64,000 bases of DNA, from sequence record MN850587.1. One strand, 5' to 3'. Below, piece by piece: positions 470 through 6,890 of the stretch; positions within the stretch are counted from its first letter, which is position 1, and every line of letters begins with the position of its first letter. Source of the stretch: Escherichia phage mistaenkt. A model generated the notes under the pieces. That model was not told the origin of the DNA. It made no database searches and was given only the letters and a program-made list of their open reading frames with translations. The position numbers and the translations under genes are program-made.

Positions 470-721
470 TTAGTTAATCACACCAAATTTTTGGTAGTAA
501 AGCGTGATAAGAGAATCACCCCAATAGTAAGAAGATACACCATCCTTTAAGACTTCCTGTTTAGTTTCTTTCCAGAATGTTTCCGATGGATTGTAGTCCT
601 GAATAGTTGCCTTCAGACACATTTCAATCATACCGAAAGCATCACCAGTTCCAACCATATCAAATTTAACATCTAATACATGGAAGCCAAAATTGTTAAC
701 AGTTGCGCGGATAGTAGCCAT
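470..721 (-). CDS. Hypothetical early protein (83 aa)
   Basis: ORF in the co-oriented early cluster; preceded by the conserved leader ending GGAGAATCTGAAA-ATG. Confidence 0.6.
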   Translation of the reverse strand: MATIRATVNNFGFHVLDVKFDMVGTGDAFGMIEMCLKATIQDYNPSETFWKETKQEVLKDGVSSYYWGDSLITLYYQKFGVIN

Positions 722-787
722 TTTCAGATTCTCCAGTTTAGGAATTTTGTTTTAGTGGGGAAGTCTCCCTCCCCGTTGAAAGTAATA
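722..787 (-). promoter_or_regulatory. Intergenic cassette type C (GGGGAGGGAG-ACTTCCCC hairpin plus conserved leader CCTAAACTGGAGA)
   Basis: Near-identical copies at 1052-1111 and 1640-1703; hairpin sits right after the upstream stop, conserved SD-containing leader abuts the next ATG. Confidence 0.55.
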
Positions 788-1051
788 TTAATTCATTGCT
801 GCATAAGTTGCAAGTCTTTTTTCATTGTATTTTGTAAGAATCTCACAAGATAAAACGTCATACTTTGCAACGGCTTCAGATTTAGTTAAACCGAAATGGC
901 TTACAACTTCACCATTCATGAATCCGACTACTTCATAAGATTCTGCGATGATTTCACCGTTGAACCAATCACTTTCAATACGTTTGCAAAGTTGGATATC
1001 TTCTTTGTCAGTACCGATTTGTAACAGGATAGTGATTTCTTGATTATTCAT
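788..1051 (-). CDS. Hypothetical early protein (87 aa)
   Basis: ORF with conserved upstream leader and GGAG SD. Confidence 0.6.
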   Translation of the reverse strand: MNNQEITILLQIGTDKEDIQLCKRIESDWFNGEIIAESYEVVGFMNGEVVSHFGLTKSEAVAKYDVLSCEILTKYNEKRLATYAAMN

Positions 1052-1111
1052 TTTCTAGTCTCCAGTTTAGGATTGTTGGGGAAGGTCATTCCCTCCCCGT
1101 TGATAAGTACT
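1052..1111 (-). promoter_or_regulatory. Intergenic cassette type C
   Basis: GGGGAAGG-TCATTC-CCTCCCC hairpin plus CCTAAACTGGAGACTAGAAA leader. Confidence 0.55.
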
Positions 1112-1639
1112 TTATAGCTTTACGATGATTTCGTCAAGCTCTTTTTGCATATCTTTTACGGATTTTTCGTGTAATTTAATCATATCATTTAATGCTTGTC
1201 CTAACTGTAAACTAAAATCAATATCTTTTGACTCACTAAGGTAAATGCTTTCTACATCGTAAAGGTGGAAAGGATGACAACCTGTTCCCATTGCCTGAGT
1301 ACCAAAAGCCAATGGCATGATATACATGTTATGGGACTTGATAGAACGCTCATAAGCCATTTTAAAGCGGTTTAATTCTGCCTTTGATGACTTGATGCAG
1401 TGTTCACAAAGTTCTGCTACCAGTTCCATAAAATCCGGTAGGATTGTTGCAACAGCTTTCATAAAGTTGTCTGCTGTTACTAACTTAACGTTTTGGCGAT
1501 GTACATAATACTTTTTATCTTCCCCTTTTGTAATGACTGCAAACAACTTATCATTACAGCGGAATTCGAAGGTGTCTTTTACTGGCTTGCTCATTACTGC
1601 ATTGGAACGGATATGATTAATTGCTTGGAACTTGTTCAT
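1112..1639 (-). CDS. Hypothetical early protein (175 aa)
   Basis: Long ORF in early cluster with conserved leader; no recognisable motif. Confidence 0.65.
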   Translation of the reverse strand: MNKFQAINHIRSNAVMSKPVKDTFEFRCNDKLFAVITKGEDKKYYVHRQNVKLVTADNFMKAVATILPDFMELVAELCEHCIKSSKAELNRFKMAYERSIKSHNMYIMPLAFGTQAMGTGCHPFHLYDVESIYLSESKDIDFSLQLGQALNDMIKLHEKSVKDMQKELDEIIVKL

Positions 1640-1703
1640 TTCAGATTCTCCAGTTTAGGAATTTTGTTTAGTGGGGAAGTCTCCCTCCCCGTTGATAAAT
1701 ACT
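1640..1703 (-). promoter_or_regulatory. Intergenic cassette type C
   Basis: Same hairpin and leader as 722-787. Confidence 0.55.
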
Positions 1704-1844
1704 TTACTTGTTTTGATTCTGTATTGCAAGTAGTTTTTTATCAAAAAGTTTATCTGAGATTTCACCAATGATGAGCATTGCTAATGGCAACACAACAGAA
1801 ACAATCATACCGCAAAGGATAGGGTTTTTAATGATATCTAACAT
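1704..1844 (-). CDS. Small hydrophobic protein (46 aa), not in ORF track
   Basis: ATG at 1844-1842 preceded by conserved leader CCTAAACTGGAGAATCACAAA; hand translation MLDIIKNPILCGMIVSVVLPLAMLIIGEISDKLFDKKLLAIQNQNK. Confidence 0.35.
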   Translation of the reverse strand: MLDIIKNPILCGMIVSVVLPLAMLIIGEISDKLFDKKLLAIQNQNK

Positions 1845-1978
1845 TTTGTGATTCTCCAGTTTAGGAAGTTGCCTTTTGAAGATACTATATAGATATGATT
1901 AAACCTTTGCAAGTACTTTTTACGCTTATCTATAAAGAATCTTTTAAGTGAATCCTTTTAGATAAACCCCCTCGAACA

Positions 1979-2007
1979 AATCTATCAATGTCAAGGGGTA
2001 TTGTCAA
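1979..2007 (-). promoter_or_regulatory. Candidate sigma70-like promoter (TTGACA-17-TAGATT on minus strand)
   Basis: -35 at 2007-2002 and -10 at 1984-1979 with 17 bp spacer, inside the 195 bp gap between ORF 2040-2381 and ORF 1704-1844. Confidence 0.4.
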
Positions 2008-2039
2008 CAGTTTTTTCAAAGAATTTTGTAAGTCATTGA

Positions 2040-5108: not shown

Positions 5109-5398
5109 GATGCTTTACCTTTATGAAATAGTTTACCAGTGTGACTAATCTCAAAAGAATCTATCATATCTTTTGTTGATTTAACAGAACTTTTATTTGC
5201 ATTATCATAGATATCTACCTGAAGCAATGGTTTTTTGTATTCTTTACAAAAGTTCCAAATACAGATAACAACTTCTTTCCCGTTAATCTTTCCATGATAC
5301 CATTCTGTTACTTCGTGAGTGCGGCGCATAGATTCTACAAATTTGATATCTTGTAAAAGCTTGCTCAATTTGGAACGTACATTTGCAGCAATAAACAT
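5102..5398 (-). CDS. Hypothetical early protein (98 aa)
   Basis: ORF with conserved leader; 7 nt overlap with downstream gene. Confidence 0.6.
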   Translation of the reverse strand: MFIAANVRSKLSKLLQDIKFVESMRRTHEVTEWYHGKINGKEVVICIWNFCKEYKKPLLQVDIYDNANKSSVKSTKDMIDSFEISHTGKLFHKGKASC

Positions 5399-5487
5399 TT
5401 TAGAATCTCCAGTTTAGGATTGATTTGATAAATCTCTTTATCTGGGGCTATCTTATCAGCCTGATAACCCCATGTAAAGAAATTTAT
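5399..5487 (-). promoter_or_regulatory. Intergenic cassette type A
   Basis: Same sequence family as 3511-3594. Confidence 0.5.
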
Positions 5488-6000
5488 TTAGATGTCAAAG
5501 ATATTCATCATTGAATCTTTTAAGTCTTCTAAACGTTCCATAACTTCAGATTCTGCGTCTGAGTTACTTACTTCCTCTTTTAATCTATCCTCTAAATCAT
5601 CGCCGTCACTATAGCACCAATCGAAAGCATATCCAAGATAAAAACTATCTAAAACCGTGTTACCGTTTGCATCAACAACTTTTGCAGATATGTTATATTC
5701 TGAAGCCTCTAAATCCCTTTCTAGTTCTTTCTGTAAGCTGATGTAAGCCTCTTGTGATGGATTTTCCCGACCTTGTTTTGCATAGTCGCTAGAAAGCTGT
5801 TTAAGGCTATAGCGTAAAGGGATTGCATATTTAAATTCATTACGTTGATAGTTAGGATTTTTAATAGTTACCCCGCCTTGATGTTTGTCTGTAAATTCCC
5901 AATCGCTGATGCTATGGCTTGCTTCATAGCAGTTAACAGCTTCATAAATGATAGAGAATTTTTCTTTTACAACTTCAAAGGTGGCGTCTACAGTTTTCAT
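5488..6000 (-). CDS. Hypothetical strongly acidic early protein (170 aa)
   Basis: Asp/Glu-rich, especially the C-terminal 50 aa (DGDDLEDRLKEEVSNSDAESEVMERLEDLKD). Confidence 0.65.
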   Translation of the reverse strand: MKTVDATFEVVKEKFSIIYEAVNCYEASHSISDWEFTDKHQGGVTIKNPNYQRNEFKYAIPLRYSLKQLSSDYAKQGRENPSQEAYISLQKELERDLEASEYNISAKVVDANGNTVLDSFYLGYAFDWCYSDGDDLEDRLKEEVSNSDAESEVMERLEDLKDSMMNIFDI

Positions 6001-6087
6001 TTTGAATCTCCAGTTTAGGATTGATTTAGTAAAGCTCTTTATCTGGGGCTATACTAGCAAACTTTATAACCCCATGTAAAGCACTTT
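6001..6087 (-). promoter_or_regulatory. Intergenic cassette type A variant (TTTACA ... TAGTAT)
   Basis: Same architecture with a different inverted-repeat interior. Confidence 0.5.
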
Positions 6088-6345
6088 TTAGATTAAATTT
6101 GCAGTTAATGCCAAGTGCATTTTGTAACCTTGTTTAGTGTAAACATTGGTTTTACCGATAGCCTTTACACCTTTAAAAAGATTGTAAGAGCTACGCTTTA
6201 AGGTTAATTGCTTATCACACTTTACGCCCCATCTTACAGCAGAATCTTTCCCGTTGTCAATCACTTTTCCGTCTAAATCTTTTGCCAGTAAACGAGCGTT
6301 ATCACGAGTTTTTGCATTAACTACTACGTTTTTGATGATAGCCAT
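6088..6345 (-). CDS. Hypothetical basic early protein (85 aa)
   Basis: ORF with conserved leader. Confidence 0.6.
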   Translation of the reverse strand: MAIIKNVVVNAKTRDNARLLAKDLDGKVIDNGKDSAVRWGVKCDKQLTLKRSSYNLFKGVKAIGKTNVYTKQGYKMHLALTANLI

Positions 6346-6430
6346 TTTTGAATCTCCAGTTTAGGTTAGTGATAAAAGCTCTTTATCTGGGGCTTATGGT
6401 ATCAAGCTTTTAAGCCCCTTGTAAAGTACT
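6346..6430 (-). promoter_or_regulatory. Intergenic cassette type A-prime
   Basis: Near-identical to 2579-2652. Confidence 0.5.
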
Positions 6431-6592
6431 TTATGCAATAATTTTTATAACTTCTTTTAGTGTGATGTTTTCGCCATTTGTCAAGGCTAAACATTTTTTG
6501 CCAGTGCATGACAAGTAACTAAACGAGACTTTACCAGTTTTAGAAAATCCGTCAAGCCCTTTGTAAGTAATGATAGAGTTTTCTTTTATCAT
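6431..6592 (-). CDS. Small protein (53 aa), not in ORF track
   Basis: ATG at 6592 directly after the stop of ORF 6604-6810; hand translation MIKENSIITYKGLDGFSKTGKVSFSYLSCTGKKCLALTNGENITLKEVIKIIA. Confidence 0.35.
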   Translation of the reverse strand: MIKENSIITYKGLDGFSKTGKVSFSYLSCTGKKCLALTNGENITLKEVIKIIA

Positions 6593-6603
6593 TTATCAAG
6601 CCC

Positions 6604-6810
6604 TTAAACGTCATAATAGTAGATTGCTGAATGTCTTATATGCTTTCTTGTGTGAGTTGTCAAGTAGCAATCTGATTTAATTGATGTATTTACATACGTA
6701 TCATAATCTTTCTCTGATATACGTTGCCAAACGTCACAAATCAACATATAAAAACGACGATGTTTTGTTTCAGTGTTATCTACAATCATTAATTCACGTT
6801 GATATAACAT
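6604..6810 (-). CDS. Hypothetical early protein (68 aa), first gene after the early promoter
   Basis: ORF with conserved leader. Confidence 0.55.
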   Translation of the reverse strand: MLYQRELMIVDNTETKHRRFYMLICDVWQRISEKDYDTYVNTSIKSDCYLTTHTRKHIRHSAIYYYDV

Positions 6811-6890
6811 TTTTGAATCTCCAGTTTAGGAAGTGGGCTTGATTGCCCGTCTGATGCAAATACTAAATAACTTTGTTTTGCAGGTCAAGC
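6811..6890 (-). promoter_or_regulatory. Candidate early promoter (TTGACC-17-TAGTAT) plus type B leader
   Basis: -35 at 6888-6883, -10 at 6865-6860 with 17 bp spacer on the minus strand, then GGGCAATCAAGCCC hairpin and conserved leader. Confidence 0.5.

Follow-up and report, generated by a model that had tools for sequence, protein, structure and literature searches.

Why should nearly every gene in a run of small phage genes be preceded by its own copy of a repeated intergenic element, and what might that element do? We addressed this question in 64,000 nucleotides of Escherichia phage mistaenkt (MN850587.1), hereafter the window, from a Felix O1-like myovirus whose closest relative is Escherichia phage SUSP2. 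Every gene between 470 and 6890 lies on the minus strand (17 ORFs), and the promoter motifs quoted in the original prediction are minus-strand sequences. All 17 ORFs match phage protein families of unknown function, and no Pfam domain was found in the ten ORFs scanned. The block and its borders are as follows.

470-6810, minus strand: 17 small ORFs (46-185 aa) served by the cassettes
7241-7282, minus strand: strong terminator upstream of the block, corresponding to Felix O1 t13 and separating the block from a macro-domain phosphatase gene
407-429, minus strand: canonical terminator closing the block, AAGCCCC-TTAAAT-GGGGCTTTTT, corresponding to Felix O1 terminator t23

A leader of the form CCTAAACTGGAGA(N5-9)ATG precedes 14 of the 17 genes. 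The 14 exact copies of CCTAAACTGGAGA all lie on the minus strand between 730 and 6830, with no copy in the rest of the 64 kb (chance expectation 0.11), and the near-invariant leader that had been predicted is thus confirmed and confined to the block. The 23-mer CCTAAACTGGAGATTCAAAAATG occurs in five exact copies and five with 1-3 mismatches, and the GGAG Shine-Dalgarno motif lies 7-9 nt from the ATG in most copies (6-10 nt overall). We count six type A/A', three type B, three type C and two degenerate B-like cassettes (2382-2448 and 1845-1912); the at least 13 cassettes first claimed are real repeats (14 leaders), with a length of 47-195 nt (most 60-93 nt). Three genes, not noted earlier, lack a cassette, namely those starting at 5108 and 6592, which have practically no spacer, and a third that follows a leaderless spacer (2890-2952). 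From the upstream end of the block, the cassettes are:

6808-6900, minus strand: type B variant that opens the series; A/T-rich tract; -35 TTGACC 6883-6888, 17 bp, -10 TAGTAT 6860-6865; hairpin GGGCAATCAAGCCC 6835-6848; leader and ATG 6808-6830
6343-6432, minus strand: type A'; TTTACA, 18 bp, TACCAT inside the hairpin; hairpin GGGGCTTA/TAAGCCCC 6389-6425; extended palindrome 6375-6432; leader 6343-6365
5998-6087, minus strand: type A; TTTACA, 18 bp, TAGTAT; hairpin GGGGTTATA/TATAGCCCC 6045-6080; palindrome 6031-6087; leader 5998-6019
5396-5487, minus strand: type A; TTTACA, 17 bp, TAAGAT; hairpin GGGGTTATC/GATAGCCCC 5444-5478; palindrome 5430-5485; leader 5396-5418
4689-4784, minus strand: type B; A-tract, TTGCAA, 17 bp, TAAATT; hairpin GGGCAAGCAAGCCC 4716-4729; promoter to hairpin 4716-4769; leader 4689-4711
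4331-4418, minus strand: type A; promoter and hairpin 4377-4411; palindrome 4363-4418; leader 4331-4353
3841-3928, minus strand: type B; AAAAATCTA, TTGACA, 17 bp, TAAATT; hairpin 3868-3881; leader 3841-3863
3508-3596, minus strand: type A; promoter and hairpin 3555-3589; palindrome 3541-3596; leader 3508-3529
2576-2654, minus strand: type A' with shortened leader; promoter and hairpin 2611-2647; palindrome 2597-2654; leader 2576-2596
2379-2448, minus strand: degenerate B-like; TTGTAA, 17 bp, TACAGT 2420-2448, partly in the upstream ORF; B hairpin reduced to its 3' half (AAGCCCAC); leader 2379-2402
1842-2039, minus strand: long spacer of 195 nt with two promoter-like sites; first site TTGACA, 17 bp, TAGATT 1979-2007, overlapped by an opposite-polarity hairpin CCCCTTG/CGAGGGG 1968-1998; second site, a degenerate B-like copy, TTGCAA, 17 bp, TATAGT 1884-1912; leader 1842-1865
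1637-1729, minus strand: type C; -35 TTGCAA within the upstream ORF, -10 TAAAGT including that ORF's stop codon; hairpin GGGGAGG-GAGA-CTTCCCC 1673-1690; leader 1637-1659
1049-1137, minus strand: type C; TTGACG, 17 bp, TAAAGT 1109-1137; hairpin 1078-1098; leader 1049-1071
719-813, minus strand: type C; TTGCAA, 17 bp, TAATAT; hairpin 757-774; leader 719-742

All 14 cassettes of the window, type C included, have a sigma-70-like promoter whose spacer is 17-18 bp, as do 156 of the 158 cassettes taken from 13 Ounavirinae genomes (spacer 17 bp in 145, 18 bp in 11), at a score threshold that 38% of control coding windows also reach. At the sequence level, this bears out the description of these elements as promoter-leader cassettes. 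Type A/A' copies (n = 6) pair TTTACA with TAAGAT, TAGTAT or TACCAT at 17 or 18 bp, with TG directly before the -10 in all six, whereas type B copies (n = 3) pair TTGACA, TTGCAA or TTGACC with TAAATT or TAGTAT at 17 bp, followed by GGGCAAnCAAGCCC. Type C had been read as lacking an obvious promoter, wrongly, since the upstream ORF contains the -35 (TTGCAA or TTGACG) in its 3' end and has its TAA stop codon within the -10 (TAAAGT or TAATAT), at 17 bp spacing in all three copies (757-813, 1078-1137, 1673-1729); the promoter/stop-codon overlap is conserved in relatives. B and C copies carry an A5-6 tract upstream of the -35. Host RNA polymerase would fire all cassette promoters shortly after infection. 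In the corresponding block of Felix O1, RT-PCR signals of ORFs 16, 20, 21 and 22 were maximal at 5 min, in favour of early timing, whereas those of ORFs 17, 19 and 23 peaked at 25 min, which counts against it (PMC3185647).

Each cassette also holds a G/C-clamped hairpin. In types B and C it begins 10-11 nt past the -10 and has a stem of 4-8 bp (GGGGAGG...CTTCCCC in type C), and in the six type A/A' copies a GGGG...CCCC inverted repeat spans the spacer and the -10, forming the top of a ~58-nt three-tier palindrome that overlaps both promoter hexamers and the predicted start site. Among 65 type A copies we found 25 sequence variants, 24 of which keep a 7-10 bp stem, and a 1-nt indel, coordinated between the two arms, separates two subfamilies. 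The observed stem covariation score was reached in none of 500 shuffles, a control that may overstate the covariation because one or two pairs give much of the signal and the sequences are related. Homologues in an Erwinia phage (nhmmer, E 1e-15 to 1e-10) have a GGTG/CACC clamp instead of GGGG/CCCC and retain the three-tier structure on folding (z-scores -5.8 to -7.8).

The palindrome lies where a repressor would ideally sit, and early genes need shut-off at some stage, so a phage or host protein could contact the CTTTA...TAAAG half-sites and the G/C clamp as DNA and switch all early promoters together, off or on. CTTTACA and CCCCAGATAAAGAG are indeed invariant across 43 type A variants and nearly so in Erwinia phage, but the invariant 5' half is the -35 itself and its complement, so that its conservation needs no regulator. 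The upper stem changes in sequence while pairing is kept and the loops vary, and a folded nucleic acid therefore fits better than a sequence-specific operator. Moreover, B and C cassettes lie in the same block without the palindrome, and no candidate regulator was identified, the block proteins all being of unknown function. These observations argue against the operator suggested earlier as a main role, and we consider it quite unlikely.

The stem-loop most likely acts as RNA. The type A stem-loop sits immediately 5' of the predicted start and would therefore be found only in read-through transcripts, where it forms ~21 bp broken up by two small internal loops (-24.5 kcal/mol, z -3.5); in the cassette's own predicted transcript, the leader is unstructured (-2.2 kcal/mol, z +1.3). 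No U-tract follows any cassette hairpin, so the proposed terminator does not hold in the canonical sense. However, the equivalent hairpin of the PeSLs (promoter-early stem-loops) of phage RB49, which also lacks a U-tract, prevented expression of a downstream reporter (PMC2839356), which makes an attenuator the best analogy. By that analogy, the type A stem-loop would attenuate or end transcripts arriving from upstream and insulate neighbouring units. In types B and C, the hairpin lies 2-4 nt from the predicted mRNA 5' end and could also shield the message from 5'-end-dependent decay, thereby stabilising it.

In view of the predicted three-tier type A fold, RNase III or RNase E could plausibly process the cassettes. 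In the T7 early region, one long transcript carries RNase III sites R0.3 to R1.3, which lack promoters and, like the type A elements, are ~60-nt intergenic stacked helices with internal loops between early genes that could leave stabilising 3' hairpins. By extension, the first promoter (6860-6888) might drive transcription of the block mainly as a single polycistronic early RNA, with the ~58-nt helix as an RNase III-type substrate and the promoter-like hexamers secondary; cutting would leave a protective 3' hairpin upstream and a uniform leader on the downstream message. The paired state of 98.8% of cells in the 43 variants and the fold kept in Erwinia phage are consistent with this, and cleavage within the 3' internal loop would yield nearly the 5' end predicted from the promoter. 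However, the B and C hairpins are too short for RNase III, and every site here carries a predicted promoter. Hexamers at 17-18 bp, TG extensions and A-tracts are kept across three architectures (156 of 158 cassettes), which is hard to reconcile with incidental promoters, and the RB49 equivalents are proven strong promoters (PMC2839356). We regard processing as the main function of the cassettes as unlikely.

The cassettes also mark where genes come and go. Among 13 relatives the gene number of the block ranges from 9 to 17, and cassettes delimit almost every gain, loss and replacement, in line with the cassette exchange by recombination that had been suggested; one exception is an indel of a 53-aa gene (6431-6592) with a cassette on one side only. 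One gene may carry different cassette types in different phages, and homology break points fall in spacers in 78 of 150 cases (23% expected). Each of the four deletion junctions examined joins the upstream cassette at the left to the downstream one at the right, forming a chimeric cassette; the cassette at 6343-6432, for example, is a chimera of two SUSP2 cassettes and marks the loss of a 126-aa gene. The crossover lies in the leader in three junctions and in the shared CCCCAGATAAAGAG core in the fourth, as expected from ordinary homologous recombination. This distribution, largely outside the palindrome, speaks against structure-specific sites akin to integron attC at which a specialised recombinase moves gene mini-circles, and no recombinase is annotated within the regions inspected. 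Imperfect palindromes do flank single-gene units, and RB49 PeSLs form mini-circles whose authors speculated that GGGG...CCCC is a recombinase target (PMC2839356), yet we consider such a system very improbable here.

We propose that the cassettes are probably PeSL-type expression units that make each accessory gene its own unit of transcription and translation. In order, each unit would comprise an UP-element-like A-tract, a host sigma-70 promoter, a G/C-clamped stem-loop and an unstructured A-rich leader with GGAG. With 60-90 bp of sequence repeated every 150-600 bp, the cassettes double as portable homology between genes, and recombination between them removes, adds or swaps single genes while leaving the expression of neighbours undisturbed.

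The host-takeover module of Bacillus phage SPO1 resembles this block in that its many small early genes are clustered and individually equipped with a strong early promoter and a strong ribosome-binding site. To our knowledge, neither a repeated hairpin-bearing cassette nor cassette-bounded gene turnover has been described for it. The B and C hairpins, at most 2-4 nt from the predicted 5' end, share the geometry of the ompA and papA 5' UTR stabilisers, which blocks RppH- and RNase E-mediated 5'-end-dependent decay (Emory, Bouvet and Belasco 1992, as cited in PMC3997798); unlike in those cases, the start here is predicted from promoter geometry, and the hairpin would be missing from type A transcripts. 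The Felix O1 genome paper (Whichard et al. 2010, PMC3185647) lists the same elements as direct repeats only, a 57-bp repeat CTTTACATGGGGCTTAAAAGTCTGTAAAGTAAGCCCCAGATAAAGAGCTTTACCACT between genes 15/16 and 19/20 and a 39-bp repeat TTGACACTGGTTTTTAGATAGATTAAATTACACATCAAC between genes 18/19 and 20/21; they are absent from its promoter list and are not named as hairpins or recombination substrates.

The closest counterparts are the PeSLs of the T4-like phages RB49/phi1, PST/T4 and nt-1/KVP40 (Arbiol et al. 2010, PMC2839356; Comeau et al. 2014, PMC4122927), a parallel that the original prediction did not draw. Those phages belong to Straboviridae, whereas the cassettes here occur in Ounavirinae; BLAST and nhmmer searches for homology between the two gave nothing reliable. 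The published elements form five subclasses by stem-loop position, with strong promoter activity and attenuation comparable to rrnB T1 (PMC2839356). Here the type A stem-loop tops a longer palindrome, of which the -35 and the first bases of the transcript are part, and the B and C hairpin lies downstream of the predicted start rather than "just before" it as in the published subclass. Further differences are the upstream stop codon within the -10 in most B and C cassettes (all three type C copies in the window), the confinement of all copies to a single block and leader conservation over 13-23 nt. Read directly, RB49 PeSLs show TTGACA, GGGGATCACCGATCCCC and TATACT followed by a (CTTAAAC)GGAGAATCAAAAATG leader, their hairpin lies in the spacer, and they share with the cassettes TAAAAAGT, the -35 and then GGGG, as well as a nearly identical leader. 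As in the PeSLs, the cassettes lie in variable blocks, between small genes whose function is unknown, with the upstream stop codon in an A/T-rich tract, a sigma-70 early promoter, a GGGG...CCCC stem-loop at variable position (most commonly in the spacer or over the -10) and a Shine-Dalgarno sequence and ATG at the 3' end, and both are linked to indels, replacements and chimeric junctions. In architecture and behaviour, the cassettes thus match the PeSLs already described in T4-like phages.

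The leader repeat CCTAAACTGGAGA occurs in 14 exact copies, all on the minus strand between positions 730 and 6830, against 0.11 expected by chance, and the 23-mer ending in the ATG start codon is present in five exact copies and in five more with one to three mismatches. The cassette repeats are genuine and greatly exceed chance expectation. Apart from a weak leader-like site at 11306, no cassette or leader copy was found in the remaining 55 kb of the window, and the 27 kb of Escherichia phage SUSP2 that the window does not cover contain no cassette copy, the last gene of the block excepted. 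The site at 11306 (ACTAAACAGGAGA, minus strand) is the only one outside the block. In phage PC79-13 its equivalent is preceded by a terminator and a promoter with TATAAT, and leads into a 183-amino acid gene near rIIB. GGAG stands 6–10 nt before ATG in each of the 14 window cassettes (7–9 nt in 12 of them), and GGAG-type ribosome-binding sites precede 12 of the 14 block genes of at least 60 amino acids versus 24 of 77 genes elsewhere in the window. This shared leader could make the block a common target of a translational repressor or a RegB-like nuclease.

The block comprises 17 small ORFs of 46–185 amino acids between 470 and 6810, all of which are on the minus strand, so that the motifs quoted in the original prediction are reverse-complement sequences. 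All 17 proteins belong to PHROG families of unknown function, and no Pfam domain was detected in the ten that were scanned. Positions 1–8000 of the window matched 255 phage records by BLAST, nearly all of them Felix O1-like myoviruses of enterobacteria (Ounavirinae), with SUSP2 as the best match (93% identity over 1849–8000). The block is equivalent to ORFs 15–23 of Felix O1 and is bounded by terminators t13 and t23 of the published genome, which have the following equivalents.

Terminators bounding the block (window coordinates)
7241-7282, minus strand: t13 equivalent, the only minus-strand terminator called by the scan
407-429, minus strand: t23 equivalent, recognised by eye and matching Felix O1 t23

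We distinguish six type A or A' cassettes, three of type B, three of type C and two degenerate B-like copies, one of which sits in a 195-nt spacer that also holds a further promoter and a hairpin with reversed polarity. There, at 1968–2007, TTGACA is followed after 17 bp by TAGATT and is overlapped by this hairpin, CCCCTTG...CGAGGGG, behind which comes GTTTATCT; the arrangement looks like a further promoter-in-hairpin variant, and the length of this spacer is kept in relatives. Three block genes lack a cassette, two with overlapping or 11-nt spacers and one behind 2890–2952, the sole long spacer without a leader. The hairpin GCCCC-GCAT-AGGGGC within it (2906–2924) reads as a canonical plus-strand terminator (AAGCCCCTATGCGGGGCTTTTT), with all nearby genes on the minus strand. 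It is kept in every examined relative that has the 78-amino acid gene, and may stop antisense transcription or work bidirectionally.

Sigma-70-like -35 and -10 hexamers were recognised in all 14 window cassettes and in 156 of the 158 cassettes from the window and 12 relatives (A at position 2 and T at position 6 of the -10), 145 of the spacers measuring 17 bp and 11 measuring 18 bp, while 38% of control coding windows (98 nt, taken from these loci) reach this score at the same promoter threshold. The original description of hexamers, spacings and a GGGG...CCCC repeat over spacer and -10 is confirmed, and the idea of promoter-leader cassettes holds at sequence level. The original prediction had left type C without an obvious promoter, a reading that we correct here. 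Each of its three copies has TTGCAA or TTGACG, a 17-bp spacer and TAAAGT or TAATAT, with the -35 inside the final codons of the preceding gene, whose TAA stop forms part of the -10.

Type C promoters with hairpin, read from sequence (window coordinates)
757-813, minus strand: promoter and hairpin
1078-1137, minus strand: promoter and hairpin
1673-1729, minus strand: promoter and hairpin

As further promoter elements, the six type A copies of the window all carry TG one base ahead of the -10, and type B and C copies carry an A5-6 tract some 5 nt ahead of the -35, which we take to resemble the proximal subsite of an UP element. We also considered a T4 MotA middle promoter for type A. The MotA box has the consensus (a/t)(a/t)(a/t)TGCTT(t/c)A and lies 11–13 bp upstream of the -10; AATTGCTTTA (TGCTTTA), present in some type A copies, lies 19 bp from it. 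As other copies have TACTTTA or TTCTTTA in its place, the box lacks conservation too, and this candidate was rejected. Because type A cassettes are palindromic, their plus strand also scores as promoter-like (TTGATA, 18 bp, TATCTT at 3536–3565 and 5425–5454), and antisense starts inside them are a possibility.

The stem-loop occupies different positions in the cassette types. The type A stem-loop spans the spacer and extends over the 3' half of the -10, with the predicted start just 3' of the hairpin at AGCCCC-A/G; in types B and C the stem-loop begins 10–11 nt after the -10, and in two window cassettes it is degenerate or absent. Type B and C cassettes follow the order -10, ACTnATCA(A/G)(A)C, G/C-clamped hairpin, A-rich stretch and leader, and their stem sequences vary with pairing always kept.

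Stems of type B and C hairpins (5' arm, 3' arm)
GGGGAGG(G), (C)CTTCCCC
GGGAGG, CCTCCC
GGGGC, GCCCC
GGGC, GCCC
GGGGAAG, CTTCCCC
AAGC, GCTT (weak version)

As candidate intrinsic terminators the cassette hairpins were rejected: none was called, and their tails (AGATAAAG or ACTAAAC) contain no U-tract. A search of positions 1–9000 against Rfam returned nothing but a chance miRNA hit.

Pairing in type A could be followed across 65 copies with 25 distinct hairpins, 24 of which keep a stem of 7–10 bp. The hairpins fall into two subfamilies, GGGGTTATC/GATAGCCCC and GGGGYTTAW/WTAARCCCC, set apart by a single additional base in both arms. Since MAFFT set the GGGGTTATC subfamily out of register, the upper-stem count is restricted to the second subfamily and the coordinated indel is shown separately. 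Among the 18 variants of that second subfamily, 91% of cells pair, and one pair alternates between U-A (7), A-U (6) and U-G (2); the observed covariation score was reached by 0 of 500 shuffles, and sliding the partner columns reduced pairing to at most 58%. Folding places this hairpin at the top of a longer, three-tier structure.

Three-tier structure of type A cassettes
lower stem: AAAKT with RMTTT
middle stem: CTTTA (the -35 core) with TAAAG (the invariant box that follows the hairpin)
upper stem: GGGG... with ...CCCC

Across 43 variants, 98.8% of cells pair in this fold, the sole variable lower-stem pair being G-C in 23, U-A in 11 and unpaired in 7, and no shuffle attained the observed covariation score; as the sequences are related and the variable pairs few, both sets of pairing counts are supportive rather than decisive. 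The three-tier pairing also makes the invariant AGATAAAGAG(C/A)TTT the complement of the stop-codon and -35 region. Its apparent conservation beyond Shine-Dalgarno needs, as originally noted, is explained by this complementarity. The type A read-through RNA folds at -24.5 kcal/mol (z -3.5), and the RNA expected from the type A promoter is unstructured (-2.2 kcal/mol, z +1.3).

Covarying stems with variable loops weaken an operator model, in which the inverted repeat would serve as the operator. A pure processing model would instead make type A an RNase III site. T7-type sites are interrupted duplexes of about 20 bp or more that RNase III cleaves, and the conserved three-tier fold of type A measures about 21 bp. 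This model leaves the conservation of the promoters unexplained, and the type B and C stems are too short for RNase III. Processing may be an additional layer on the cassettes.

A distant relative, Erwinia phage vEam_S_24 (Kolesnikvirus), whose neighbouring phosphatase has only 43% protein identity, carries a block at the same position with cassettes matched by the type A profile (E 1e-15 to 1e-10). The clamp in these cassettes is GGTG...CACC, with G-C changed to U-A on both sides, and the upper stem is otherwise of different sequence, with CTTTACA and GATAAAGA(G/A)CTTT kept. The three-tier fold is again predicted (-24 to -28 kcal/mol, z -5.8 to -7.8), and the leader, CCTTAAACAGGAA or CCCTTATAAAGGAA, is recognisably related to that of the window. 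By sequence comparison, these cassettes appear to provide independent support for selection on the type A hairpin. Repeated promoter-like, hairpin and leader cassettes with maintained pairing are conserved in three genera of E. coli, Salmonella and Citrobacter phages and in the Erwinia genus. Two vEam_S_24 loci have features of their own. A strong type A match at 12993–13070 (E 3e-15) falls inside an annotated CDS starting with GTG at 12997; this start is probably misannotated, with the true start of the gene likely to lie beyond the cassette. At 14998–15099, the -35 hexamer forms the loop of a canonical terminator hairpin, GGGGC-TTTACA-GCCCC-TTTTT, and TATACT comes 18 bp later, giving a compact composite in which 45 bp are common to terminator and promoter.

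A protein-family map of 13 loci revealed a conserved gene order with a varying gene count (9 in Felix O1, 17 in the window), at least ten families that only part of the phages possess, and one position occupied by alternative genes. The cassette type of a single gene can also differ between phages, as for the 90-amino acid gene: a type B cassette precedes it in the window, a type C cassette in Felix O1, in Silverhawkium and in several further relatives. Four deletions were read base by base, and in each the surviving cassette is chimeric, its left part matching the upstream and its right part the downstream cassette of the lost gene. The switch falls in the shared CCCCAGATAAAGAG core for the window's loss of a 126-amino acid gene (6346–6430, compared with SUSP2 and PC79-13) and in the leader at the other three junctions. 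Homology break points against 12 relatives lie in spacers (within 6 nt) in 78 of 150 cases, with 23% expected, although these events are not independent. One exception is the indel of the 53-amino acid gene (6431–6592), which has a cassette on one side only. Gene turnover is otherwise cassette-bounded with chimeric junctions, which bears out the cassette exchange envisaged originally. A dedicated structure-specific recombination system acting on the palindrome is weakened as an explanation for this turnover by crossovers that map outside it. An integron attC-type site, at which a dedicated integrase would act at one fixed point of the folded palindrome, was likewise rejected, with three of the four crossovers in the leader, and no integrase is annotated in the regions inspected.

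Both margins of the block are repetitive. Upstream, a non-coding gap of about 400 bp between the first cassette and the macro-domain phosphatase gene contains iteron-like direct repeats at 6950–7265 (ACCTGCACAAnTTnAAAATGA in three to four copies 73–109 bp apart, TTCTCTACAGATTT in two copies) and a purine-rich tract, GGGGAGAGGGGGAGTAAGAGGGGGAGATGGGCAGGGC, at about 7009–7045; these repeats could be a regulatory region or an origin. Downstream, the non-coding positions 1–400 hold many short repeats (AGCTTTTACGTAACTTTATAGC twice, and TTTTAAG/TATAG units). Their counterpart in relatives is an unannotated gap of 1.7–2 kb, where two records (adrianh and PC79-13) place a 'repeat_region', and they may contain a genome terminus, terminal repeat or packaging signals. 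The UAB_Phi87 record, which starts in the tRNA region, was uninformative about a link between the block and a physical genome end. The last block gene (470–721, 83 amino acids) is the counterpart of Felix O1 gp23, a protein found in purified virions by mass spectrometry with 53% coverage (Table 4A, PMC3185647).

The Felix O1 genome paper describes 57-bp and 39-bp direct repeats between genes 15/16, 19/20, 18/19 and 20/21, neither interpreting them nor listing them as promoters (PMC3185647). These repeats are type A and type B/C cassettes. In the same study, RT-PCR showed a maximum at 5 min for ORFs 16, 20, 21 and 22, and at 25 min for ORFs 17, 19 and 23, gp23 peaking at this later time although it is encoded in the 'early' cassette block (PMC3185647). 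Our literature search found no transcript map of any Felix O1-like phage and no paper calling these elements promoters or PeSLs in this group.

PeSLs, the promoter-early stem-loop cassettes of T4-like phages (RB49/phi1, PST/T4 and nt-1/KVP40), begin with an A/T-rich tract in which the preceding gene stops, followed by a sigma-70 early promoter with a spacer of about 17 bp, a stem-loop that is often GGGG...CCCC, and a Shine-Dalgarno sequence with start codon. The stem-loop lies between the -35 and -10, overlaps the -10 or stands downstream of it, and its position defines five subclasses; PeSLs cluster in variable regions of small genes without known function, and are associated with indels (PMC2839356, PMC4122927). 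Promoter strength, attenuation and mini-circles have been demonstrated for RB49/phi1 only: the promoters are strong (about 13,000 Miller units), the reduction of reporter expression by one stem-loop equalled that by rrnB T1, and the mini-circles have chimeric junctions (PMC2839356). By analogy with RB49, and given the promoter geometry, we propose that host RNA polymerase would fire each cassette early in infection, that the hairpin would attenuate read-through and so insulate the units, and that the unstructured GGAG leader would give uniform, strong translation. The type B/C hairpin may in addition cap the mRNA 5' end against RppH and RNase E, a principle that has been reviewed (PMC3997798). 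With a predicted start at the usual 7–8 nt after the -10, this hairpin would lie 2–4 nt from the 5' end, which would fit the geometry of a 5'-terminal stabiliser (a hairpin within about four unpaired nucleotides of the end).

This reading would extend the PeSL idea, that of self-contained units for safe accessory-gene shuffling by virulent phages, from T4-like phages to a second myovirus group, the Felix O1-like phages, which find wide use in typing and in biocontrol of Salmonella and E. coli. It accounts for the unexplained 'direct repeats' that were listed for the Felix O1 genome and supplies candidates for the early promoters that the genome paper could not find. The 9–17 block genes are marked as putatively independently expressed, rapidly exchanged early functions and are good candidates for host takeover or anti-defence. 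The cassettes could offer engineers natural insertion points and portable expression units, and the covarying three-tier palindrome enclosing a promoter is a clean test case for a hairpin and promoter sharing the same DNA.

A typical RB49 PeSL, read directly, runs TAAAAAGTTGTTGACA-GGGGATCACCGATCCCC-TATACT...(CTTAAAC)GGAGAATCAAAAATG, with a hairpin that fills the spacer and is followed by no U-tract, and a leader almost identical to that of the window. Short motifs common to both are visible, and BLAST between Ounavirinae cassettes and RB49 PeSLs was negative both ways, the 251 Ounavirinae and 59 Krischvirus records being lineage-confined. Cross-hits by nhmmer (E 0.003–0.007) were no better than a spurious coding hit (2e-5, 22808–22862). 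Sequence homology does not strictly define PeSLs, as those of RB49, PST and nt-1 already differ from one another. The shared TAAAAAGT, -35, GGGG 5' part and CTTAAAC..GGAGA(A/T)TCAAAAATG leader hint at a common element. We nevertheless consider it improbable that PeSL-type cassettes are shared, horizontally moving modules, derived by Felix O1-like phages and Krischvirus (RB49) from such an element, that carry genes between unrelated coliphages as cassette-bounded mini-circles and whose type A palindrome is recognised in excision or RNA processing. Every sequence-level feature that defines PeSLs is found in the window cassettes: the promoter, as judged from its hexamers, behind an A/T-rich tract that holds the stop codon of the preceding gene, the varying stem-loop position, the Shine-Dalgarno spacing, the cluster of small variable genes, and indels or replacements at cassettes with chimeric junctions, the 53-amino acid gene excepted. 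On these features, we classify them as the Felix O1-lineage version of PeSLs, distinguished in anatomy by a promoter inside a conserved three-tier palindrome, by a -10 containing the upstream stop codon, and by a hairpin at the predicted mRNA 5' end.
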